This document shows, piece by piece, positions 3,639 through 38,729 of a DNA stretch of 38,729 nt (positions are counted from its first letter, which is position 1; the number at the start of each line of letters is the position of its first letter). The position numbers and the translations under genes are program-made. The stretch is from a candidate division FCPU426 bacterium (GTDB taxonomy: Bacteria; Oederibacteriota; Muellerivitia; Muellerivitales; Muellerivitaceae). Under the pieces are notes generated by a model. That model saw only the letters and a list, made by a program, of their open reading frames with translations. It was not told the origin of the DNA and made no database searches. The stretch lies in assembly GCA_963847625.1 (NCBI GenBank), contig CAWKAR010000061.1, positions 1 through 38,729 of the forward strand, in the 5' to 3' direction.

Positions 3639-4959
3639 CACTAGTGTCCGGTTAAGGAACTGACAGAAGCTCTGAAACCTTTTCCCCTCAATGTTTTTAG
3701 GCCCCAATCGTCCTTTTTCGATTTCAATTTGAAACCTCCTATAACCGTCCTTTACTCCCCGTAAAGGATGGTTTCCATGAACCCAGGCCGTACCGTTTTC
3801 GCCCAGTTAATGGATTTCTTACCCCGTCATGAATTCCAAAAATGTGTCAATCGCTATCACGGTAACTTCCGAGTCCGAAGTTTCTCCTGCTTGGATCAAT
3901 TCCTCTGTATGGCTTTCGCACAACTAACCTACAGGGAAAGCCTCCGAGACATCCAGGCTTGCTTGGGTTCCTTCAAAGCCAAGCTTTATCACATGGGCAT
4001 CCGTGGAAAAATCGCAAGAACCACTCTCGCGGACGCCAACCAAAACCGAGACTGGCGCATTTTTTCGGACTTCGCCCAAGTTCTCATTCATATAGCCCAA
4101 CCCCTTTACGCCGGGGATGATTTTGGCGTCGAATTAAACCAAACAGCCTATGCCTTTGATTCCACCACCATCGATCTTTGCATGTCTCTCTTTCCATGGG
4201 CCGGCTTTCGGTCTACCAAGTCCGGTATCAAACTCCACACCCTTCTTTCACTTCGGGGAAACATTCCCATTTTCGTCTGTATTTCCAATGCTTCCACGCA
4301 TGACGTCCGACTACTCGATGTTCTCCCCATCGAAGCAGGTTCTTTTTATATCATGGATCGTGGCTATACCGACTTCGCCCGCCTTTTACGCTTCACCGAA
4401 AGTCTGGCTTTCTTTGTCATACGGGCCAAGTCCAATTTCAACTTTTACCGTCGCTATTCAAATCCCGTGGACAAGTCCTCAGGCCTCCGTTTCGATCAGA
4501 CCGTAGTCTTGGCCGACCCAAATAAGTTCCGAGAATATCCACTCCCTCTGCGCCGAATCGGCTTCATCGATCCCATCACTTCCAAATATCTGGTTTTCCT
4601 CACCAACAATTTCTCTCTTCCTGCCTTGACCATTGCTCAGCTTTACAAATCCAGATGGCAGGTGGAGCTTTTCTTCAAGTGGATCAAGCAACACCTTCGT
4701 ATCAAGACCTTCTTCGGCAACTCTCCCAACGCCGTCAAAACCCAAATTTGGACGGCCATTTGCGTTTATGTTCTGGTTGCCATCGTCAAGAAAAAACTCG
4801 GGTTCTCCCAGAGCCCCTACACAATTCTACAGATTTTGAGCATCTCGCTTTTTGAGAAAGCCCATATATTAGAAGTGTTTTCAGACGAAGCTTACATCTC
4901 TGAATCCTTCACCCCCGAAAACCAGTTGTCTTTATTACGTTTTTAACCGGACACTAGTG
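3639..4959 (+). mobile_element. IS4-family insertion sequence, 1321 bp
   Basis: Perfect 17-bp TIRs CACTAGTGTCCGGTTAA (3639-3655 and 4943-4959). 9-bp TSD ATATTTAGT at 3630-3638 and 4960-4968. Confidence 0.96.
3768..4946 (+). CDS. IS4-family DDE transposase (DUF4372 N-terminus)
   Basis: DSTTID, MDRGY, and the YKSRWQVELFFKWIKQHL (YREK) motif. Confidence 0.96.
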   Translation: MVSMNPGRTVFAQLMDFLPRHEFQKCVNRYHGNFRVRSFSCLDQFLCMAFAQLTYRESLRDIQACLGSFKAKLYHMGIRGKIARTTLADANQNRDWRIFSDFAQVLIHIAQPLYAGDDFGVELNQTAYAFDSTTIDLCMSLFPWAGFRSTKSGIKLHTLLSLRGNIPIFVCISNASTHDVRLLDVLPIEAGSFYIMDRGYTDFARLLRFTESLAFFVIRAKSNFNFYRRYSNPVDKSSGLRFDQTVVLADPNKFREYPLPLRRIGFIDPITSKYLVFLTNNFSLPALTIAQLYKSRWQVELFFKWIKQHLRIKTFFGNSPNAVKTQIWTAICVYVLVAIVKKKLGFSQSPYTILQILSISLFEKAHILEVFSDEAYISESFTPENQLSLLRF

Positions 4960-4970
4960 ATATTTAGTTT

Positions 4971-5261
4971 TCATTTTTTGTACTTCATTCCCGATTGTTT
5001 AAGAAAATCCATTACACGGCGCTTTATTAGGTTTAGTTCCACGACTCTAAGTTCCCTTTTCATTTCATCGGCAATGTACATTGCCGACTCTTTAAAAATA
5101 TCATGAAATACGAATTCGAATAGCTCATCCTGTTCCTCGGTGGTCATTTCCTTGTAATTTTTAGCGAGGTTTATTGGAATAACAATGGCGTCAAGAAGAT
5201 CATTACCAAGGTAGCCATTCAAGAAATGGGCGATCCGCTCCGGAGCGGATATTTCAGACAT
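4971..5261 (-). CDS. Hypothetical protein, paralogue of 9..335
   Basis: Aligns with 9..335. Its stop overlaps (ATGA) the original start of the HTH gene. Confidence 0.65.
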   Translation of the reverse strand: MSEISAPERIAHFLNGYLGNDLLDAIVIPINLAKNYKEMTTEEQDELFEFVFHDIFKESAMYIADEMKRELRVVELNLIKRRVMDFLKQSGMKYKK

Positions 5262-5824: not shown

Positions 5825-6036
5825 CGGCCCTCGTAGCCGTCCTCACTCAAGTGGACGAAGCTAAGTGTCGAAATCAAATGGGCCAAAGGCCATTTGATAA
5901 ATGGATTTTGACCAAGCCTAAAAAAAGAATTTTGCCTGGTTGGATATTTTATTAAAGGGTTGTTGGAGGGTCTATAGAAGCCCTTACCTTATGGATAGAC
6001 TCCAGAGGCATTAAGAGGGCAGAGCTTTAAACGGCT

Positions 6037-9413: not shown

Positions 9414-9545
9414 AGAGCTTGCTGAAAAAGTTTCTAATTCAGACTTTTTCAGCTACCGACATTTGTGGTAACCCCACGATTCTTGCGGAATCTTAGGGGT
9501 CAGAGGCCGCTTGGTAGCTCTGTTTTTAGTTTTTCAGCGGCCTCT
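9414..9545. repeat. MITE/REP-like element, copy 1
   Basis: Imperfect terminal IRs (AGAGCTTGCTGAAAA ... TTTTCAGCGGCCTCT) and internal hairpins. A ~95-bp core is shared with 16685-16778. Confidence 0.7.
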
Positions 9546-11037
9546 ATTTAATAGCGGTTAATTCCTTCTGCTTTTCCGCGTCCGCTTTCTTCGTCGCTGT
9601 TTCAAGGATTGAATTAATCTCCGCTACCGGCAACGAATTCTTCAATTCCCACCATGTCTTGTAATTTTTGGCCTTTGACGCGGTGGTTAGATGGTTAAGA
9701 AGCGTGACGGTATAACCGACGGGCCTTTCGCCCTTATCCACCAATTTCATCTTATAAAAAACGGCGTTTTTGCCGACCGTCGGAAGCTTGGACTGGTACT
9801 GGTTGGTATCCGCTTCCCTTTCGGCGTCGAGGTAGGTCTTGGATGCCGACCATTCGGCGATTCCCTGGGAGCAGGTTATATTCCACTGTATGAAAATAGG
9901 CTCGGTCGAGATGGCGTCCCGGATGGGCGATGCGGCCAATTCCTGGTTCAAAACAGTACGGATATTCTTTTCAACCGCTTCCCTGAAACGCTTCCCTTTT
10001 TCCAAGGCCTCGGCTTCGGTCCCCTCGAAGGCCCATAGGAACTCGTCCCCGCCCACGCGGAAAGCCCTGTTGGGGAAATGCTCCTTCAGCATTTTCCCGA
10101 AAGCCACGATGACCCTGTCGCCTATTTCGTGGCCCAAGCAGTCGTTAATGCTCTTGAAAAAGTCTATGTCCAGGCGGCAAATGAAAAATAATTTCGGTGA
10201 TACCGTTTTGGCGTGGAAATTGGGCAAGTAAACGTCAACGGCGGTTTTTGAGTAAAGGCCCGTCATGGGGTCCGTGTATAAGGCTTCCGCCGTTTTTTGC
10301 TCTGAAATGACGGTATTAACGTAGGTGTTGATGCGGTCCACGGCCCAAAAAGGGATGATCCTGAGCAGGAACTTCTCGAAAAAATTCATGCTTTTATCGG
10401 TGCGGATGACTATTTCGGTGACATGGTTCCGGGCCTTCTTGAACAGTCTCTCCAAAGCCGGGTCGGACAGCCCGGCCTTCTTCAGAAGGTTCAAGTAATA
10501 GTAAGCCTGGGGGTATTCGGACATTTTCAAATAGGCCGCCCCCAGGGAAAAATACATGTTGTTCGTGTTGTGGCCACGGTTCAACAAGCTTCTGTATGCT
10601 TTTATGGCCTCGGCAAACTGCCCCTTTTCCAATTTAATGTCGGCCTCAAGCTCCACCGCGTCCAGGTAGCCGTGGTCCATTTCGAGGATTCTTTTTATCG
10701 TCTGGATGCAATCCGGGAATTGCTTCAACTGGAAATGAGCGGTTGCCAGGAACATTGAAAGCTTGATTTCCTCCTGGGTGTATTCATTGAGCTTGGCCTT
10801 GACGGGAATCTTGAAGGCTTTGGCGACCTCCAAGGCTTTTTCCGGAGCCCCGTTATCCGAGAATATCCCGGCCGCCAATAGGTAAGCTTTGATGTTGGTG
10901 GGCTCGAATTTGTTGATGACCTGGTCGCAAAGCTCCAAAGCCTCGTTAAGCTTCCCTTCCTCCTTCAGGAAGTTGGCCTGGACAAGGCAATTACGCGCCC
11001 GCTCGGGGTTTATCTCGTGAACCTGGTCATTATTCAT
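9544..11037 (-). CDS. TPR-repeat diguanylate cyclase
   Basis: N-terminal TPRs, then DPMTGL, DIDFFKSINDCLGHEIGD and RVGGDEF. Confidence 0.9.
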   Translation of the reverse strand: MNNDQVHEINPERARNCLVQANFLKEEGKLNEALELCDQVINKFEPTNIKAYLLAAGIFSDNGAPEKALEVAKAFKIPVKAKLNEYTQEEIKLSMFLATAHFQLKQFPDCIQTIKRILEMDHGYLDAVELEADIKLEKGQFAEAIKAYRSLLNRGHNTNNMYFSLGAAYLKMSEYPQAYYYLNLLKKAGLSDPALERLFKKARNHVTEIVIRTDKSMNFFEKFLLRIIPFWAVDRINTYVNTVISEQKTAEALYTDPMTGLYSKTAVDVYLPNFHAKTVSPKLFFICRLDIDFFKSINDCLGHEIGDRVIVAFGKMLKEHFPNRAFRVGGDEFLWAFEGTEAEALEKGKRFREAVEKNIRTVLNQELAASPIRDAISTEPIFIQWNITCSQGIAEWSASKTYLDAEREADTNQYQSKLPTVGKNAVFYKMKLVDKGERPVGYTVTLLNHLTTASKAKNYKTWWELKNSLPVAEINSILETATKKADAEKQKELTAIK

Positions 11038-11594
11038 TTTTGGTCCGTGGCCATGTAAAACCCCACGATCTTAAAACCTTCCGTGAATTTTTGGACGATA
11101 AGCCTGAAAGAAAAAGGGATGTGAATGGAAGAGTTGTTCAACTGTGAGGTGTATTCCATATCGCCGGTAAGCCAGGATGCAACCTGGTTATCGTGGACCT
11201 TGCATTGGGCGGCGACTATGTTCTGAGCCGTGCAATAAAGCTTCTGGTCCGTGATTTGGCGCTGCAAGTCCATCGTGAAAAAGTTGTTTTGGAAGTCGTA
11301 TAAGACGTCCTGGGCGAAATACTTGCTGTTATCCGCCAAGTAGGTCTGGACGTTGTGAAAACCGATGTTGCAGATGGAAATGGCGACTTTTTGGGCGAAT
11401 TCCTGGTATTCGTGGACCTGGTCGGCCGGGATCGCCCCCGACGAACTAGAGGAGGAGAAATCGGGAAAACTCAGTTTCAAAGCGCCTCGATGCGAAAACA
11501 AAGCAAACCCCACAAGGATCACCAGGGCCACACCGCCGATCAGGTATTTATTTATCCCGGATGACTCGTTCTTTTCGACTCTTCCAAGTTTCAT
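11034..11594 (-). CDS. Bitopic VirB8/TcpC-like (NTF2-fold candidate) protein
   Basis: One N-terminal TM, then an alpha-to-beta pattern ending GFKIVGF. Coupled to virB4. Confidence 0.55.
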   Translation of the reverse strand: MKLGRVEKNESSGINKYLIGGVALVILVGFALFSHRGALKLSFPDFSSSSSSGAIPADQVHEYQEFAQKVAISICNIGFHNVQTYLADNSKYFAQDVLYDFQNNFFTMDLQRQITDQKLYCTAQNIVAAQCKVHDNQVASWLTGDMEYTSQLNNSSIHIPFSFRLIVQKFTEGFKIVGFYMATDQK

Positions 11595-14164
11595 GGTCTG
11601 CTCCTTAAAAATTCAGGATCGCGGTTCAAGAATTCGTCCTCCACCAGATGGTAGATGGCCCTCCAAGTCCCCTCGACGTTGCTGTCGGGGTTGAAATGGT
11701 TCATGTATTTTTCCCGCCTGGGCTTGTCCAGGGGGTGGGATGTGGAGATCCAATAGGAGACGGGATCCGGGCAGATGAAGGCCAAACCCTGCCGGGCGGT
11801 GCTCTTGATGAAACACTTGCTGTGGACGCCCTTGAGCATGAAGAGATCCGAGATAATCGCGGCTTCTTTGTCCCCCAATTCGAAGGCTTTCACGCATAAG
11901 GCCCGGTCGGCGTCCCCTAGCTTCATGAAAATCTTCGTGGCGGCGTTGTCGAGGGCCGTTTTAGCCTTCTCGGTGGCCATGCAGTCGGCTATTTTTTGGG
12001 TGGCGTAGATGGTGCAAAGGGACAAATGGCGGGAAGTCCTGGAAAGGATGTCCGCGAAATCCTGCCCGGCCGGGAAGGAAAGAAGATCCCAAAACTCGTC
12101 TATGACGATGATGGGGAATTTACCTTCCTTTTGGCAAAGCCTGGCCCGGGCGAAACAATAGGTGGAGGTGATGTAGGTAACCAAAGCCTTGATCTTCTCG
12201 CGCTTGGCTCCAAGGGAAGTGTCGAAAACGATGAACTTGCTGTTGCGGTCGATGTTGGTTTCCCGGTCGGTAATGTTCGCGTAGGTGCCGTCCTCGACGA
12301 ACTGCGAAAGGATGTCCGCGAAAGCGGACGATAATTCACGCGCCGATTCTGAACGGTTCTTATCCTTTGACATTTCCGATATGACTTTACGGAAATCCCT
12401 TAGCAGGGGGAAATGCGGCCCGCCTTCTTTACCTTTCGTTTCGTCGTATTTGGTCTTGTAGGTCTTTTTGATGGCTTCCAGGAGAACGGCCGTCTCAGCG
12501 TTCTTTAAGGCCTTCTCCCCCGTTTCGGTCAAAAGGGTCGTGAGGTAACCCAGGACCGTTTCCTCCTGGTCCTCCGAGACGACACCTCTTTTGACGTAGC
12601 TTTCCTCGGGGCAGTCGAAGGCGTTAATGTGCTTGTCGCATTTCAGGTCGAAGTAGATGTATTCCCCGCCGGCAACATCGCAAAGCGTCTTATAACAGCC
12701 GGACCGGTCGATCACCATTACTTCCGGAGCGCGCGGCATGAGCCGGGTGAGGATGAGCTGGGTGCCGAAACTTTTCCCGCTTCCGGGTGAGCCGAAAATG
12801 CCGATGTTGTAATTCTCAACCACACTCGACCAGGGATTTAGCATGAGGGGCTGGTTCCCCGCCGTATGGCCCACCAGGACGCCCTTGTCGAAAGTAAGGC
12901 TATCAATGAAAAACGGCCAGCAATTGGCGATATCCACGGTCGTCTGCAGGCGCTCGACCCGGTCCCTGGTAATGTTGGAACACAAGGGGAGGGAGGAAAA
13001 GAAAAGATCCTCCTGCTGGTAATAACCGTCGTAACGGTGGATCCCCTCAAACCGGGAGTAGAAATTCTCGTAATTGTTCTTTAAATCCTTCTCGTTATCC
13101 CCGTAAACGGAGATGAACATCGAAATCCGGGCCAAGCCCGTTTCCCTTTGGGCGATGGCGGCCAAAACCGTGCTTCTATTCCCCATATTGGCGTGTGCCT
13201 CATAGTTGGGGGTGCTGCCCTCGTCGCTGGTGGCCTGGTCGATGCGCATTTGGCCCCTGATGATCGACTTCCCCAGTTCCTGGTCCAGGCCACGGATAAA
13301 TACCGTAACCTTGAAATCCTCGTTTTGTTGAAGGAATTGAGAGAGGAAATGGGTAAGGTTTTGAACGTTGGGAAAATTGGTGATCGTCATGGTCCGGACT
13401 AGGCGTTCCCCGATTTTCAACGATGAAGGCGTTGAAAGTATCGGCTGTACGCAAAGGGCTTCCCTGAGCGTTTCCATGCTTCCGGGCCCGCCCGCCACCG
13501 GCGCGGCGTTCTTGAATCCGGACGTGTCTCCCTTAAAGTTCAAAAGGTTAATTTCCGAATATAGAAACCGGTAAATTTCCTCTTCTTTGAGTTCCCGGGC
13601 GGTCACGCCTGAGACGCCCAGGACGTTGACCCAGGCTTTGGCCCTTCTACTTACTTCCTCCAATTGTTTGACAAGTTCGTCCGTTGAATCCGGCTTGGAA
13701 TTATTACCACCCAAGAACCTTGAAAATAAATTTACGGCTGATTCCGTAAGGGGCTTTAGGTTGAAATCGATGCTGAATAAGAGAAAAACCTCGTAGTCGC
13801 AAAGACGCCTGTTCTTGACGAAATCAGAGATAAAACCCTCGTAGTATTGGACAAAGTTATTTTGAAAGCCTTCCGCCGCCTCCGGACGGCAGGTGGATTT
13901 GAAATTGTCTATCAGGACCATATCGTCCGCCGGGACACGGCGCAAAATGATTTGGATTTCCTCATTTGGCCTGAGTTGCCGGATGGCGTTCTCAAAGGCT
14001 GAAATCTTGGCCAAAACCGAGTTCTGGTCCTCCGTCTGGGGGTTTACCCCGCCCGTGACCTGGTAAACGGCGGCAAACCTGCGGTTCCGGAGCTCGATAT
14101 AACCCTCGCCCACCCGGGCAAGGTTAAGGCTTTCGGCTGGTACGCCGATAGTTTGGGTGGCCAT
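11591..14164 (-). CDS. virB4: VirB4-family T4SS ATPase
   Basis: 857 aa. Walker A GSPGSGKS, VID...Y, INAFD, Walker B IVIDEFW, SRH...YATQ. Confidence 0.92.
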   Translation of the reverse strand: MATQTIGVPAESLNLARVGEGYIELRNRRFAAVYQVTGGVNPQTEDQNSVLAKISAFENAIRQLRPNEEIQIILRRVPADDMVLIDNFKSTCRPEAAEGFQNNFVQYYEGFISDFVKNRRLCDYEVFLLFSIDFNLKPLTESAVNLFSRFLGGNNSKPDSTDELVKQLEEVSRRAKAWVNVLGVSGVTARELKEEEIYRFLYSEINLLNFKGDTSGFKNAAPVAGGPGSMETLREALCVQPILSTPSSLKIGERLVRTMTITNFPNVQNLTHFLSQFLQQNEDFKVTVFIRGLDQELGKSIIRGQMRIDQATSDEGSTPNYEAHANMGNRSTVLAAIAQRETGLARISMFISVYGDNEKDLKNNYENFYSRFEGIHRYDGYYQQEDLFFSSLPLCSNITRDRVERLQTTVDIANCWPFFIDSLTFDKGVLVGHTAGNQPLMLNPWSSVVENYNIGIFGSPGSGKSFGTQLILTRLMPRAPEVMVIDRSGCYKTLCDVAGGEYIYFDLKCDKHINAFDCPEESYVKRGVVSEDQEETVLGYLTTLLTETGEKALKNAETAVLLEAIKKTYKTKYDETKGKEGGPHFPLLRDFRKVISEMSKDKNRSESARELSSAFADILSQFVEDGTYANITDRETNIDRNSKFIVFDTSLGAKREKIKALVTYITSTYCFARARLCQKEGKFPIIVIDEFWDLLSFPAGQDFADILSRTSRHLSLCTIYATQKIADCMATEKAKTALDNAATKIFMKLGDADRALCVKAFELGDKEAAIISDLFMLKGVHSKCFIKSTARQGLAFICPDPVSYWISTSHPLDKPRREKYMNHFNPDSNVEGTWRAIYHLVEDEFLNRDPEFLRSRP

Positions 14165-26613: not shown

Positions 26614-26982
26614 TTAACTGGCGGCGGCTTTAAGCAAAAAGATCTGTAAAGCTTCCCTAGAGTCATTACTCATCATGAGAAATTGAAGACCAGCGCCCTT
26701 ATTGTCGACACGCACCACTTCGCCGTATAAAGCCACGACATCTTTCATATCAAGCAGAAAAATATCAAATTTGAAGATATTTCCAACCTTTAAAGGCTGT
26801 TCTACGGCAATAAACATTCCCCCCAAACTCATATCCAAGGTGTAAGCGTTTTGTTCTGTTGCCCGCCACTCCTCAACATTCTTGATATTTTCCCCGCCTA
26901 TAATCCACCGGTACTTGACGGGCACCTTAATGGAAACGCGGGGATTTCCCCGTCTCTCAATCGATGTATAGGCTTCTGGCAT
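26614..26982 (-). CDS. PilZ-domain protein
   Basis: RGNPR and DMSLGG. Confidence 0.9.
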   Translation of the reverse strand: MPEAYTSIERRGNPRVSIKVPVKYRWIIGGENIKNVEEWRATEQNAYTLDMSLGGMFIAVEQPLKVGNIFKFDIFLLDMKDVVALYGEVVRVDNKGAGLQFLMMSNDSREALQIFLLKAAAS

Positions 26983-27012
26983 ATCTCCCTCCGAAGCGTC
27001 ACTGTTTTAGGG

Positions 27013-27384
27013 TTACCTGCTGGAAGAGGCCTTGGAAAGGAAAGATTTAAAAGATTTCATGTCTTCCTCGCCAATAGTCAGAAACCTGATACCGCCGCCC
27101 ATTTCGTTTGTCCATACCACCTCAGCAGTTGCATTTAATTTTTTCGACGATCCGGGGATCAAGATTTCTAGGCTCAATATATTCCCGTCCTTGAGCGCCT
27201 GGCCCGCCAATATGAACATTCCTCCAAGGCTTATATCCAACGTTTGATGGAGTTTTTCCTTCTTCTTCCGGTTTTGAAGACTATCAATTCCTTCCTGGTC
27301 ATCGACCACCCTGTAGATAAGCGGGATTTTGAGGGAGATTCTTGGATGGACCCGTTTTTCTTTTAGTAGGAAAGCTTCCGGCAT
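27013..27384 (-). CDS. PilZ-domain protein
   Basis: RVHPR and DISLGG. Confidence 0.9.
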   Translation of the reverse strand: MPEAFLLKEKRVHPRISLKIPLIYRVVDDQEGIDSLQNRKKKEKLHQTLDISLGGMFILAGQALKDGNILSLEILIPGSSKKLNATAEVVWTNEMGGGIRFLTIGEEDMKSFKSFLSKASSSR

Positions 27385-27392
27385 ATGAGCCT

Positions 27393-27815
27393 TCAGGTTA
27401 AAATTTTATGCGTTAGCGGACAACTGTATGGGTACATCACCTTATTGGAAAAGTGTTTATCCATGTAACACTTCAGGCACTCTTTTTCATCATGCGGCAT
27501 TGCCAATAACTTCAAACCTGCGCCCAACTCGTTGTTCCAAGCCACATTCGCGAAAGTTTTCAGAGTTCCCATGCGGCATGGGATCATCAAATCGAGTTGA
27601 ATGATGTTGCCTTTTTTCATCTCATGGTCTGTCACGAGATATAAGCCGCCCAGGCTCACATCTTTTGTTTTTCCGCTTTTCTCTTTTTCTTGCCGTTCCG
27701 AAAAACTTTCGATTACTTTTTGCTCGTTCATCACGCGAAACTTGACTGGGATTTCCAAAGCGAATCTTGGAAGAAGCCGCTTTTCCTTGCTAAGTTTTAA
27801 TTTCCCTTTCGGCAT
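27393..27815 (-). CDS. PilZ-domain protein
   Basis: RLLPR and DVSLGG. Confidence 0.88.
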   Translation of the reverse strand: MPKGKLKLSKEKRLLPRFALEIPVKFRVMNEQKVIESFSERQEKEKSGKTKDVSLGGLYLVTDHEMKKGNIIQLDLMIPCRMGTLKTFANVAWNNELGAGLKLLAMPHDEKECLKCYMDKHFSNKVMYPYSCPLTHKILT

Positions 27816-29814: not shown

Positions 29815-29944
29815 CGGTTTCAGTCCCCGGCTTTAGCCGGGGACAAGCCGAGTACTTGGCCTGGGATCATGCCCGGCCACCCATCTTCCTATGGAAGAGG
29901 GCCGTAGATAACACGAGTGGCGACCCGTAGGGTCGTCCCTTGAC
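29815..29944 (+). repeat. Multi-hairpin element, copy A
   Basis: Four stems ending CCCTTGAC. Homologous to 35212-35348 and to 33591-33688 (minus). Confidence 0.75.
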
Positions 29945-34686: not shown

Positions 34687-35211
34687 TTCAGCAACTCCTT
34701 TTAATTATTTGAGGAGAGAGCACCCTCCGGGTGCGCCCCCTCACAAAATCCTTGGGGGCGCAAACGGAGCAAAAGAGGTGTTGGCTATGGAAAATCGATG
34801 CCGGGGGGAAGTGCGTCGTTGGTTTAAGCATTATTGGGATTCCGACAGGCCATGTTTTAGGCCGGATAAGACGAGGAACGAGGCCCGGCCTGGCCTGTCG
34901 GAAAGGCGCTGACCGGTCCCAACGGCAGAGCCGCCCCCGGATCGGTTTTCGTCCACGTTGTCGTTCGCGGCGGGGGCCACCTGGTCATACGCCACAACCC
35001 CTGCGGGGAGACAACAAGTCGAGCCGCGTGAATTGGGTGTGCCGAATCACTAAATAATAAGATTTGGCAAAGGATGACCGTGATTTGGTTGTGCAAATAG
35101 CAAAGGGCTATTTGCCTCCGGGGGATCTTCCCTCCGGGCTAGGAGAGGGTCAAAGGGAGGGGGTTTACCCCTTCCCTTTTAAAAATTACCGAGGCCTGGC
35201 CATAGGGAAGG

Positions 35212-35348
35212 TTACACCAGCCGAATTTTGCCCCGGTCATAAACCGGGGCTGGCTGTGTACTTGGGCGGGTATTTCCCCGGCCACCCGTCTTCCTATGGA
35301 AGAGGGCAGTAAATACCACGAGTAGCGGCACGAAGAGCCGCCCTTGAC
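35212..35348 (+). repeat. Multi-hairpin element, copy C
   Basis: Shares CCCGGCCACCCRTCTTCCTATGGAAGAGGGC and CCCTTGAC with copy A. Confidence 0.75.
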
Positions 35349-35484
35349 GGCCGCTGTTCTGCGGACGGCGAAGCTTCTTCAATCCCGCGAGGGTGGCCAG
35401 GCCGAGTTCAGGGCCGGTCCGCCTTTATTAACAGGCAAAGAAGATAATCCTCTTCTAACAAACCGTTGGTTAAAAGGAGAGGTA

Positions 35485-36315
35485 ATGAAATCAATCAGCA
35501 TCCCCAAAGTGTCCATTCAAGCGGTTCTTTATGTCCGGGTATCCTCCAAAGAACAAGAAAAAGGGGGTTTCTCCATCCCCGCCCAATTGAGATTACTTCG
35601 GCAATACGGGGAAACCCAAAGGTTTACCATTCTTAAAGAATTCCGGGACGTGGAAACCGCCAAGCAATCAGGACGGGAGGGGTTTGGGGAAATGGTTAGC
35701 TACCTTACAAAAAATCCAAGCTGCAAACATCTATTAGTCGAAAAAACTGACCGTCTTTACCGCAATTTCAAGGATTACGTTTCCTTGGAGGAAGTCGGTA
35801 TAGACATCCATTTGGTTAAGGAAGGGTCAGTCGTATCAAAAAAATCTAAATCCGCCGAGAAATTCATACATGGCATTAAGGTCTTAATGGCCAAGAATTA
35901 CGTTGATAATCTTTCGGAGGAAACCCGAAAAGGGATGACCGAAAAAGCGGAGGAAGGGATTTGGCCTTCCGTTGCCCCTGTTGGTTATAAGAACGTATTG
36001 GGAAGATCAGGAAAAAGGACGATAAAGCCCGATTCCCAATTGGCCCCGTTTATTATCAGTCTTTTCAAAACCTATTCATCCGGTAATTATTCCCTTGAAG
36101 ATATTACGAGAAAGTTCAGTCGAAAGCGGTTGGTCCTCCGGAAAAGCAAAAACCCTTTGCCCAGGAGTACGGTTTATAAGATCCTGTCCAACCAGATGTA
36201 TTCAGGAAAATTCAGATGGAAGGAAAATCTTTATCAGGGAAAATACACGCCCTTGATCTCAGGGAAACTTTGGAAAAAGGTACAAGGTGTGATGAGGAAG
36301 CGATCAAGAAGGTAA
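35485..36315 (+). CDS. Serine recombinase (catalytic + recombinase DNA-binding domain, no Zn-ribbon/coiled coil), 276 aa
   Basis: YVRVSS.EQ, ETAK..GR..F, DRL.RN, G.WP..AP.GY, IL.N..Y.G, P.IS..LW..VQ, then stop. AGGAGAGG RBS. Confidence 0.9.
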   Translation: MKSISIPKVSIQAVLYVRVSSKEQEKGGFSIPAQLRLLRQYGETQRFTILKEFRDVETAKQSGREGFGEMVSYLTKNPSCKHLLVEKTDRLYRNFKDYVSLEEVGIDIHLVKEGSVVSKKSKSAEKFIHGIKVLMAKNYVDNLSEETRKGMTEKAEEGIWPSVAPVGYKNVLGRSGKRTIKPDSQLAPFIISLFKTYSSGNYSLEDITRKFSRKRLVLRKSKNPLPRSTVYKILSNQMYSGKFRWKENLYQGKYTPLISGKLWKKVQGVMRKRSRR

Positions 36316-36322
36316 AATAGTT

Positions 36323-36352
36323 TTGTCTACTACGCCTCCCCGTCGTGGACAG
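36323..36352 (+). other. Putative recombination site 1
   Basis: TTGTCTACTACGCC-TC-CCCGTCGTGGACAG, 7 bp after the recombinase stop. Confidence 0.7.
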
Positions 36353-36369
36353 CTTTAAAACCCAACTTT

Positions 36370-36717
36370 TTAATACTTCCTGTGACAACTTGAACATTTA
36401 TTTAAGTGACCAGAAACAGCCTTTAATATCCAATACGAAACATTCCAATTGAGCCTTTTCCCACAGTGGGGACAAGCAAAACGGACCATTGGCCAGAAGC
36501 CAAGAAACATGAGTACTGCGAAACAAATTTCCAAGCAAATAGAAGTCGGATCGCTTTTCAACATTGAGCTTGGGAAGTGTTTTGAAAAAGAATAAATCAA
36601 TAAAAATAAGATGCCCATTGTAGCAAAAAACCAAACTACAGTTTTTCGAACATTAGCCAAAGTCGCTTTTCGTACGGAGAGCATTTCTAATAAGATGAAT
36701 TTAGAGCGATTCGCCAT
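36370..36717 (-). CDS. Membrane protein with zinc ribbon (cassette 1)
   Basis: 2 TM, CPHCG...CSSC. AAAGG RBS. Confidence 0.65.
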   Translation of the reverse strand: MANRSKFILLEMLSVRKATLANVRKTVVWFFATMGILFLLIYSFSKHFPSSMLKSDPTSICLEICFAVLMFLGFWPMVRFACPHCGKRLNWNVSYWILKAVSGHLNKCSSCHRKY

Positions 36718-36738
36718 TGGTCACCTTTCTAAAATCTA

Positions 36739-36768
36739 TTGTCCACGACGGGTCCCCGTCGTGGACAA
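36739..36768 (+). other. Putative recombination site 2 (perfect)
   Basis: TTGTCCACGACGGG-TC-CCCGTCGTGGACAA, with perfect 14-bp inverted arms. Confidence 0.75.
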
Positions 36769-36800
36769 GCCAAATTAACCCGGAGGTTCTGGATGTGTTC

Positions 36801-38135
36801 TTAATTCAGGTCAAATTCTACGAATTTCATTTTTTCGTGGGTTGGCTGTAGGTTATTGGCCGTTGAAGCCACACCCGATTTAGGCCTTGGTATTTTCGAA
36901 ACCCTTGCTTTTTCATCGACGACACTAATGATCTGGTTGGTTTGCGGGTTTAATTTGCATGGGTAGCCCAAGACCGATGGGAAATGGATAATTTTTTGTG
37001 GCGATCCGGAGGAATCAAAATAAACCACGACTGAACTAGAGGCGGGGATTTCCCACGTTCCTTCCTTGATGAACACCGCCCAAAAACCACCCTTGGCTTC
37101 TTCTGGAAAAACTTCCCGTACAAGGTAACGTTTTTCCATTCGATCCCATAAAAAAGTAGTTTGTTTTTGGGCGTCTTTCATTTGCTGTTCATTGTTGGGG
37201 TCGTACTTCTCGCTTTGACCAGTTTTAAGGTCCGTCCATTGGGCCAAGGTTCTTCCATTGAGTTCATAAATCCTGTCTTCATGGCCAGTGTCCAGGGCGA
37301 AACCCCGGACTCGACCGCTTTCCAAGTCATCAAAATAGACTTCTTGAACGGAAAAGGAACCTATCACCTTTTGGTTCGAACTAATAAAGGGTGAACCCAA
37401 TGGCAAATCGTTCAAGGTTCGAACCCTTTTAAAAGAAGGTGCTTTCCAAAAAACCATTTTCTTGAGGCTATGAGAAATTCCGAAAAAAGTGGAGGGGCTC
37501 AACTGTAGGATGTTTCCATCTAAAGGTAAATCGGCGGCGGGATCGACCGGGGTGATTCTTCCTCCGTTTTCAAGGTCCATGACGCCCGAACCCAGGATAA
37601 ACCGGTCGTCCCCAACATAATGGCCGATACTGAACCATTTCTTTTTATGGACAATTTCCTTCAGGGAGGGAATTTCAAAAACCGAGTCGAAGTACAAGCC
37701 GTCGTCCGTCATTCCCAGGGCGAAATATTTCCCATGCGGGCTAACGTAAATCAAATGATCCGAACTTTGATAAAGGATCTTTTTTTCATCCCTATCCACC
37801 AAATAGTTGGTGGCAACGGTGTTAATGGTGAAATATCTTCCATCTTGATCGCAATTAAAATCCAAGTTTTTGGCGTTTTGAACGGCGGGAGGAAGGAGGT
37901 TCAACACCTCCAAGAACCGATCATGGTAAAAATCTTCGAACCGCCCCCCGATTCCAAAAGAATAGACCTCCGCGATGAATATGCCGGTTTTCTCATGGTA
38001 GTCCTTCCAGGACAGGGTCTTTTTTATGATGGCTTCTTTATGAACAACGGCCTGAGCCCGAACCGGTTTTACCCAACTCAAGTGGAAAAGAATCAAGGCA
38101 AGACATATATACCCGAGTTTATTCGAAAATCTCAC
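36801..38135 (-). CDS. Secreted beta-rich (propeller-like) protein (cassette 2)
   Basis: Signal peptide ending VRA. DGRYF and SPHGKYFAL propeller-type motifs. Confidence 0.65.
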   Translation of the reverse strand: MRFSNKLGYICLALILFHLSWVKPVRAQAVVHKEAIIKKTLSWKDYHEKTGIFIAEVYSFGIGGRFEDFYHDRFLEVLNLLPPAVQNAKNLDFNCDQDGRYFTINTVATNYLVDRDEKKILYQSSDHLIYVSPHGKYFALGMTDDGLYFDSVFEIPSLKEIVHKKKWFSIGHYVGDDRFILGSGVMDLENGGRITPVDPAADLPLDGNILQLSPSTFFGISHSLKKMVFWKAPSFKRVRTLNDLPLGSPFISSNQKVIGSFSVQEVYFDDLESGRVRGFALDTGHEDRIYELNGRTLAQWTDLKTGQSEKYDPNNEQQMKDAQKQTTFLWDRMEKRYLVREVFPEEAKGGFWAVFIKEGTWEIPASSSVVVYFDSSGSPQKIIHFPSVLGYPCKLNPQTNQIISVVDEKARVSKIPRPKSGVASTANNLQPTHEKMKFVEFDLN

Positions 38136-38237
38136 AACTTCACCATCCTCAAAAATTTTTTATTCCGAACCATTTTAAATCTCCCCGCATTGGACGACTT
38201 AAAGAGCTCTTATTTTACTGTTTTGAAGTCAAAAGGG

Positions 38238-38267
38238 TTGTCCACTTGGGGTCCCCGTCGTGGACAC
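38238..38267 (+). other. Putative recombination site 3
   Basis: TTGTCCACTTGGGG-TC-CCCGTCGTGGACAC. A degenerate right half-site TC-CCCGCATTGGACGA lies at 38182-38197. Confidence 0.7.
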
Positions 38268-38278
38268 CTCTAGAATGC

Positions 38279-38728
38279 TTATTTCACTTTTGACAATGCT
38301 TTCAAAACAGCTTTACCAATTTGTTCAGGAGTAGATTTATTGCTGATTTGGAAAATACTTTCTACGATTTCTTCCCCATTTGGTTTAAAAGGGGTGAAAT
38401 CCAGATGTTTCCCATCATCAAACACATCGATATAAACAGCGTAGTCTTTAAACTCTTTCCAGGTTTTAACGCCTGCCAAACCCAGTAAAGGCTTATAGAG
38501 GGATTCTACCGGTTGGTTGCCCATATAAGGAAAATCCTTGGAAGACAGACTTAGGATTTCCAGGATCATTCTTCCAATTTCCGCCGGTGGCGCCGTCACT
38601 TCCAAGGCTTTGAAAGGCTGGGATGGACAATAGGTTTCCTGTTCGCCATTAAAGAAGTAATCTTCGCTGGAGAACATTGGATAAATAAAAAGCTTGTCTT
38701 TGCGTTTCTGAACGCATGCCGTTTTATG
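38279..38728 (-). CDS. CdiI-like (DUF1436-type) immunity protein, 5' end outside window (cassette 3)
   Basis: Frame open to the window edge. P...L......EIG..IL..L..S, LAGVKTWKEF and S.PEQIG.AVL.ALS patterns. Confidence 0.65.
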   Translation of the reverse strand, partial: HKTACVQKRKDKLFIYPMFSSEDYFFNGEQETYCPSQPFKALEVTAPPAEIGRMILEILSLSSKDFPYMGNQPVESLYKPLLGLAGVKTWKEFKDYAVYIDVFDDGKHLDFTPFKPNGEEIVESIFQISNKSTPEQIGKAVLKALSKVK

Positions 38729-38729
38729 A

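Follow-up and report, generated by a model that had tools for sequence, protein, structure and literature searches.

The DNA analyzed here (the window) is a stretch of 38,729 nucleotides (nt), positions 1 to 38,729 of contig CAWKAR010000061.1 in the genome assembly GCA_963847625.1, which derives from a candidate division FCPU426 bacterium of the family Muellerivitaceae. Its right-hand end features a short serine recombinase gene, the last gene of a conjugative element, followed by an array of single-gene cassettes that are separated by repeats of about 30 bp. Comparison with related genomes indicates that these repeats are recombination sites and that the cassettes between them move as units. 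As a whole, these observations are best explained by one system, in which a family of sites, the cassette arrays that they delimit, and a short recombinase that acts at the sites and belongs to the conjugative element would work together, and we favor this explanation with moderate confidence. The sites, the arrays, the breakpoints inside the site core, the conservation of the short enzyme under selection, and its constant junction with a site are established at the level of sequence comparison. The further proposal that the short recombinase itself moves cassettes is unproven. Throughout the text, G000 denotes the genome of the window, other G-labels denote comparison genomes, and C-numbers denote contigs within each of them.

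Sites and Cassettes in the Window

A preliminary description of this DNA, made from its letters alone, had noted three direct copies of the repeat at 36323, 36739, and 38238, and a pattern search bears this out. The 29-nt pattern TTGTCYAC-N6-TCCCCGTCGTGGACA has perfect matches at 36323–36351, 36739–36767, and 38238–38266, each time on the + strand, so that three direct copies are seen where 100 shuffles give an expectation of 0.00. The second copy (site 2, + strand, 36739–36768 at its full length, core TC at 36753–36754) is, as had been described, a perfect 14+2+14 inverted repeat, and a fourth match of the pattern is this same copy read in reverse. The distance is 416 bp from site 1 to site 2 and 1499 bp from site 2 to site 3. 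An Rfam search of the window region matched no family.

The layout around these copies was also recovered as described, with a recombinase gene that ends 7 nt before the first site and one minus-strand gene packed into each interval (stops 12–32 nt from a site, and one start 21 nt from a site). The short serine recombinase is encoded at 35485–36315 on the + strand. Site 1 (36323–36351, + strand) appears to be a hybrid junction from the conjugative element to the array, in which the left arm (36323–36336) would belong to the element and the right arm (36339–36351) to cassette 1, on either side of the core TC at 36337–36338. A derivation of this left arm from the recombinase gene was considered and rejected, as the resemblance is weak and a left-arm subtype that recurs among the sites explains it better. 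Cassette 1, measured from core to core, occupies 36337–36752 (416 bp, minus strand) and contains an open reading frame (ORF) at 36370–36717, the stop of which lies about 18 nt to the right of site 1 and the start 21 nt before site 2. Its product of 115 amino acids (aa) features hydrophobic segments and a CxxC...CxxC motif. Cassette 2 (36753–38251, 1499 bp, minus strand) contains an ORF at 36801–38135 that stops about 32 nt to the right of site 2 and encodes a 444-aa protein with a hydrophobic N-terminus; the DNA of this cassette has no match among the related genomes searched. Site 3 (38238–38266, + strand, core TC at 38252–38253) precedes the ORF of cassette 3 (38279–38729, minus strand), which stops about 12 nt to the right of the site and, cut by the contig end, encodes at least 149 aa. 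None of the three cassette products has a Pfam match. The preliminary description had also placed a half-site at 38182. A degenerate right half-site, TCCCCGCATTGGACG, is indeed present at 38182–38196 on the + strand, but the match is weak, with mismatches at 3 of the 13 specified positions of the right-half consensus, and falls below the thresholds of the site search.

A Site Family Shared Across Genomes

The sites of 29–30 bp follow the consensus TTGTCCAC-NNN-GGG-TC-CCC-RYC-GTGGACAA. With at most one mismatch allowed, the right-arm 13-mer has 66 matches in G000 versus 0 for the reversed control, and merging yields 60 candidate sites on 19 contigs, grouped in 27 clusters. The exact 15-mer TCCCCNNCGTGGACA was found in 23 of 24 other genomes of the family, which represent many genera, with up to 84 copies per genome; outside the family it was found in 6 of 16 genomes, with 1–3 copies each. 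From these comparisons, the repeats emerge as a recombination-site family common to this whole bacterial family of uncultured soil bacteria. The preliminary description would have been contradicted by a motif scattered over the genome as a simple palindromic repeat, with no link to the recombinase and with fixed gene order at related loci. Such scatter was found, whereas the recombinase is linked to the motif and gene order is not fixed.

The sites come in two lengths, with 139 distinct short (30-nt) sites and 13 long ones collected. Ten of the long sites measure 54–55 nt and a few measure 78–96 nt; examples in G000 are located at C13:9268–9322, C13:109317–109371, C3:143186–143240, and C63:81563–81617. 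The long variant is predicted to fold into an outer 8-bp stem, an internal loop in which C(A/C)CTG stands opposite an invariant TCCCC, and a 9-bp inner hairpin, which lies between the left arm and the core. Among the ten sites of 54–55 nt, compensatory changes are seen at 8 of the 9 inner-hairpin pairs. The sites had been proposed to be purely double-stranded sites with 14-2-14 geometry, which fits the short form and does not fit the long hairpin variant.

Every one of the 13 multi-site clusters of G000 has its sites in a single orientation, and 40 of 60 sites have a gene stop no more than 120 bp away in the expected geometry, compared with 5 of 60 in the mirror geometry. Crude ORF calls (at least 60 aa), on which the array gene counts in this genome are based, place one ORF in 20 and two ORFs in 7 of the 33 inter-site units, and 46 of 51 array genes are antisense to the site strand. 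Relatives are similar in layout, as exemplified by an array of 13 sites that spans 10.5 kb in G002. These counts indicate that the sites are placed directly 3′ of stop codons in one fixed orientation and bound cassettes of one or two genes at many chromosomal places. The content of the cassettes is accessory and includes PIN/FitA, MazEF, HigBA, RelE/MqsA, BrnT, GNAT, glyoxalase, DinB, and HAD hydrolase genes along with many unknowns. Sites are also found behind large ordinary genes, for example those for HflX and a 2283-aa glycosidase.

Sites and arrays are in turn associated with other mobile elements. Group II introns, inserted in the sense of the cassette genes, are present inside sites in G001, G002, and G018. 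Two of these, at G001:C4 6937–7676 and 10845–11584, have no ORF and are 99.7% identical to each other (Rfam RF02005, RF00029); one at G002:C2 ~10544–12400 encodes a 436-aa reverse transcriptase/maturase, and one at G018:C9 104–1450, with a 398-aa reverse transcriptase/maturase, splits the site beside the recombinase. An IS30-like element of 1,055 bp (326-aa transposase with HTH_38 and rve domains) has ~40 near-identical copies in G000, three of which (C3:143898–144960, C26:64837–65897, and C38:55741–56795) are within ~100 bp of a site, which is above chance, and a second insertion sequence (IS) of ~1,052 bp splits a cassette on C21 of the same genome. Trios of tyrosine recombinase genes were observed at G001:C4 12640–15922, about 1 kb from the head of a site array and beside ArdC and RadC genes, and at C20:38768–42101 of G000, 25 kb from the nearest site.

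Breakpoints Within the Site Core

Cassette 1 provides the clearest comparison. It is 100% identical to a sequence in another genus (G042:C28) between 36337, the core T of site 1, and 36767, at the end of site 2, and the left arms and both flanks of the cassette are unrelated between the two genomes. By comparison, the conjugative elements of the window and of G042 are only 68–77% identical. Contigs of two public sequencing runs have junctions of the G042 type and switch exactly at 36337 and 36767, and in one of these runs (X2) a contig changes to other sequence exactly before 36337. The recombinase-linked copies of the site behave in the same manner. Four of them in G042 have a common ...TACTGAGTGTTCCTTTTGGGTCCCC and cease to agree at the first base of the right arm, and, together with those in G019, G045, and G046, they share the stop codon, TCAGTAGTACTGA, the left arm, and GGGTCCCC before diverging at the right arm. 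In a pair of cassettes on C3 and C21 of G000, which are 92–95% identical, homology begins at CTCCC and the left sides are unrelated. A mazEF cassette occurs in three genera at ~85% identity and ends near sites on both sides. Since homology between copies stops inside the GGGTCCCC core, the repeats are taken to be recombination sites that bound mobile cassettes, and each cassette appears to be transferred whole, by a crossover within the site.

The public-run contigs contain neither a deletion joint between two sites of the window nor a circle junction, although contigs cannot reveal rare forms; the sole joint among them is a contig with two sites around a different insert of 432 nt. In a search for an empty site, the flanks of the G042 element were not found in 3 congeners. 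One array on C19 of G000 has flanks that are conserved in G001 but lie 81 kb apart there, and two of its cassettes are found elsewhere in G001 without sites.

The Short Serine Recombinase and Its Element

The recombinase consists of 276 aa, with PF00239 at residues 13–159 (including YVRVSS and Ser20) and PF07508 at residues 187–273, which cover profile positions 4–102 of 102. It has neither a zinc ribbon (PF13408) nor a coiled coil and ends ~10 residues before the CxxC of its paralogues of 507–515 aa. The short form is found in 5 of 31 family genomes, representing 4 genera, at 71–81% identity and with C-termini that agree within a few residues. For 7 of 10 short-form pairs, the ratio of nonsynonymous to synonymous substitution rates (dN/dS) is 0.08–0.16, the other pairs being saturated. 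All 19 of the closest protein clusters in a large database have the same architecture (275–283 aa, PF00239 plus PF07508, no PF13408). Because the short form is conserved and its dN/dS is low, the recombinase is not a pseudogene, and a reading as a truncated gene remnant (276 versus 507 aa) is rejected. A split of the gene by its own integration, as known for SSV1, was likewise rejected, with no orphan C-terminal piece in G000, G002, G018, G042, or G045. An AlphaFold model (AF2; mean predicted local distance difference test score, pLDDT, 80.9) has large serine integrases as its best fold matches (9dxd, 9iu2, 9rah, 4bqq, and 4kis). Among these, 4bqq is a crystallized N-terminal-plus-recombinase-domain construct of the phiC31 integrase, and 4kis comprises the DNA-bound C-terminal domains of the LI integrase, matched at a root-mean-square deviation of 2.6 over 133 columns. 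The enzyme is best described as a large serine recombinase that naturally dispenses with the zinc-ribbon and coiled-coil parts and that forms a conserved clade of its own. A literature search, with most subscription papers outside its reach, returned no account of such a clade or of arrays of this kind.

The junction between this gene and a site is constant. A site lies within ~50 nt of the stop in 4 of the 5 full-length short-form genes, and in the fifth (G018) the site is split by a group II intron. All 5 fragments of the recombinase gene end at a site, including fragments at three further places in G042, and their 5′ ends are irregular, in line with decayed insertions at different sites. 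No site is found near the long paralogues of 507–515 aa. These regularities argue that the link between enzyme and site is real.

The gene itself belongs to a conjugative element of ~37 kb, which occupies the array in the manner of an outsized cassette. Positions 1–36336 of the window are its right-hand part (at least 36 kb, the left end lying beyond the contig start), with the recombinase as its last gene and with insertion into the array at site 1. Scans of the window and of G042 identified a TraG/VirB4-like ATPase, ArdC, and other transfer-type genes in the element, including an 857-aa TraG P-loop/TraC-like protein (PF19044) at 11591–14164; no relaxase was recognized among the element ORFs scanned. 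The element is collinear with G042:C8 ~46–80.8 kb, where 20 ORFs show 40–82% aa identity. Sites in direct orientation, at 44052 and 80863, bracket the G042 element, and a 7-kb relative in G045 is bracketed by sites at 5899 and 12933. With type IV secretion genes, an integrase gene at one end, and direct repeats on both sides in G042 and G045, the element has the features of an integrative conjugative element. No other recombinase is present among the 41 ORFs scanned in the window element or the 41 scanned in the G042 element.

Proposed Mechanism and Alternative Explanations

In the favored explanation, the element would carry one site right after the recombinase gene and would recombine with any array site, site 1 being the resulting hybrid. 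Serine recombinases make a double-strand cut at a central dinucleotide. The enzyme would here cut the 14-2-14 site on both strands at its central TC and would insert or excise the element at any site of the family. With neither a zinc ribbon nor a coiled coil, it may need only ~13–14 bp per half-site and may not discriminate between partners; if ~13 inner bp are left to the catalytic and recombinase domains, this would fit the 14-bp arms found here. The enzyme would probably also excise and reinsert cassettes between sites and take neighboring cassettes along when the element is transferred. Such shuffling is considered probable because the enzyme has no coiled coil and because the sites of an array, all in direct orientation, share one asymmetric core. 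In its most far-reaching form, the proposal is that of a serine-recombinase counterpart of the integron, which would recombine any two 30-bp sites with a TC core, redistribute single-gene cassettes over dozens of dispersed arrays, and bring cassettes from one genus to another on element transfer, an instance of which would be the 416-bp cassette found identical in two genera; this form is put forward tentatively.

A number of observations weigh against this explanation. Matches to PF00239 are absent from 19 of 31 family genomes, several of which carry large arrays with sites as well kept as elsewhere; the exact 15-mer has 25 copies in G011 (99% complete), 46 in G006 (98%), 39 in G023, and 30 in G022, all of them genomes without such a match. 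Even in G000, a serine recombinase is found next to just 1 of the 27 site clusters. The crossover is resolved to the 8-bp core and not to the central dinucleotide, which is compatible with a tyrosine recombinase as well, and two cassettes of G000 are also present in G001 but have no flanking sites there. The inner hairpin of the long variant would be neither needed nor readily tolerated by a mechanism that acts on double strands only, which leaves the attC-like fold unexplained. The junction of recombinase, site 1, and cassette 1 is covered by no independent contig, and the likely source run (X1) has no contig over the recombinase or cassette 1. As a 30-bp repeat can cause a misjoin in assembly and this junction is uncovered, the 100% identity of cassette 1 could partly reflect assembly. 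Moreover, we know of no active large serine recombinase without a zinc ribbon, and zinc is reported to be essential for DNA binding by the phiC31 integrase (PMC3152356).

Much of this would be accommodated if the sites were attC-like and folded as single strands, served by another enzyme encoded elsewhere (a tyrosine recombinase or a nuclease of unknown family), with the conjugative element merely landing in them. The arrays in genomes without any serine recombinase fit this explanation, as do the attC-like layout of the long sites, where TCCCC lies in an internal loop between the outer stem and the covarying inner hairpin, and the 8 conserved core bases, which fit the overlap region of a tyrosine recombinase. 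Integron attC sites are used as landing pads by IS1111-attC elements and group IIC-attC introns, and the introns inserted in sites of G001, G002, and G018 would have a parallel there. Yet G000 has no integron integrase, the best TIGR02249 score being 45.3 bits against a cut-off of 265, which none of 18 matches reaches, and the 18 PF00589 matches in this genome are all more than 10 kb from any multi-site cluster. In the 5 genomes compared, the arrays have no recurrent recombinase gene next to them, and the stems of 120 distinct short sites have no strand bias (G-T 78 versus A-C 92), so that there is no signal on which strand folds. The genomes without a recombinase, the hairpin variant, the null strand test, and the uncovered junction are the reasons for which action by another enzyme is kept as a substantial rival, unlikely as we consider it.

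Two further explanations were weighed. The preliminary description had proposed an integron-like cassette system run by the serine recombinase, and its sites, mobile units, and link to the recombinase stand. The part in which the recombinase is a resident platform enzyme dedicated to the adjoining array does not, as the gene belongs to the conjugative element, and we consider it improbable. It would account for the 14-2-14 geometry and for the adjoining array at all five full-length genes and all five fragments, but the gene lies within an element that is collinear between genera, its fragments recur at the three further places in G042, and most arrays have no such gene nearby. In addition, the platform layout of an integron is not seen, as the recombinase converges on the 3′ ends of the cassettes instead of diverging from them. 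Less probable still is that the sites are palindromes of the repetitive extragenic palindromic (REP) or terminator type, kept or spread for a function at transcript 3′ ends and not recombined, so that the arrays would be accessory genes that each carry one. The position right after stop codons, even behind such large genes as those for HflX and the glycosidase, would be expected of such palindromes, as would the genome-wide scatter, the covariation in the hairpin, and the two siteless cassettes in G001. Against this stand three independent comparisons in which the breakpoints map exactly to the core, the uniform orientation of the 13 clusters, and the conservation of sequence, beyond pairing alone, across many genera. 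In addition, none of the three loci with a Y1 transposase (PF01797; C39:22987, C22:5849, and C24:100290) is near a site, and on this ground a system of REPs and REP-associated tyrosine transposases (RAYTs) was rejected.

Relation to Known Systems

Single genes are stored and reshuffled by site-specific recombination in integrons, which, to our knowledge, are the one well-understood system of this kind and which depend on a single family of tyrosine recombinases and on folded attC sites. The arrays described here resemble integrons and clusters of attC sites lacking integron integrases (CALINs) in their co-oriented, mostly single-gene units, in the palindromic site after the stop, in breakpoints within the site, in accessory and toxin-antitoxin content, in a site length that varies through a central hairpin, and in the many arrays with no recombinase nearby. 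Group II introns in sites are paralleled by the group IIC-attC introns (PMC3001079). Unlike integrons, the present system has no IntI and no attI/Pc platform, has dozens of dispersed arrays versus one platform, and has as its sole linked enzyme a serine recombinase that is located on a conjugative element and is convergent with the cassettes. The attC sites have the ends RYYYAAC/GTTRRRY and a length of about 57–141 bp; the short sites here are 29–30 bp long and end in TTGTCCAC/GTGGACAA. A classical integron was rejected on these grounds (no integron integrase, no attC ends, and no platform).

The enzyme has more in common with the large serine integrases (phiC31, Bxb1, A118/LI, SPbeta; TnpX, CcrAB), namely the catalytic and recombinase domains and a gene at the end of an element, beside a short pseudo-palindromic site with a central dinucleotide. 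It differs from them in having no zinc ribbon and no coiled coil, the parts that, in the model for the LI integrase, set the discrimination between attP and attB and the directionality (PMC3783163). In further contrast to these integrases, the site of the element and its targets look alike, and there are many targets per genome. The absence of a built-in attP × attB rule is shared with the small serine invertases and resolvases (Hin/Gin, Tn3, gamma-delta). These enzymes have a crossover site of about 26–30 bp with a 2-bp core and bind DNA by a small helix-turn-helix, whereas the recombinase domain of a large serine recombinase is found here. Tandem islands (SCCmec composites at rlmH, and the Dehalococcoides ssrA islands; PMC3146451) likewise combine a serine recombinase, direct-repeat sites, and serial units; their units are many kb in size and occupy one chromosomal site, in contrast to the single genes and dispersed sites seen here. 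REPs and bacterial interspersed mosaic elements (BIMEs) with RAYT transposases are also short extragenic palindromes that occur after genes in many copies, but the present sites have no RAYT link, are strictly oriented, are organized in arrays, and have breakpoints in the core.

A whole family of uncultured soil bacteria possesses arrays with the logic of integrons and with a different site, no integron integrase having been found in G000, and a minimal serine recombinase, encoded on a conjugative element, is the sole enzyme tied to these sites. If this enzyme is active, gene-cassette systems would have arisen more than once, and cassette exchange would be tied directly to conjugation. It would also be a compact recombinase (276 aa) with a 30-bp site and no built-in directionality, and hence a possible tool. 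As these arrays have no integron integrase and no attC ends, standard integron finders would probably miss them.

Further Features of the Element and Its Relatives

The element carries an IS at 3768–4946 with a DUF4372 plus DDE_Tnp_1 transposase. The ORFs on either side of it, at 9–335 and 4971–5261, match one and the same G042 gene, pointing to a duplication or rearrangement where the IS was inserted. Its cargo includes genes related to cyclic-di-GMP, namely three tandem PilZ-domain genes at 26614–27815 and, at 9544–11037, a gene for a TPR-GGDEF protein, which the elements of G042 and G001 have kept as well. Short stretches at 35117–35218, 35348–35414, and 29825–29944 recur at 79–91% identity on C55 and C20, within the window, and in G001 and G002; those upstream of the recombinase may be internal repeats of the element family. 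Part of a related element is found at G001:C5 814–7592 and 8003–11164, and its other end abuts a site array in this genome without the short recombinase. A sequence of 37–38 nt at G042:C8 2205–2242 recurs many times in G022:C12:144–156 kb and on several G043 contigs at 95–100% identity.

An IS110-like element was considered as one that targets the sites and was rejected, as a different target is evident from the flanks of 8 copies, and 1 copy only is near a site-like sequence. This IS110-family element measures 1.53 kb, has ~10 copies in G000, and adjoins two of the three Y1-transposase (IS200-like) genes mentioned above (C39:21376–22905 and C24:98681–100210).

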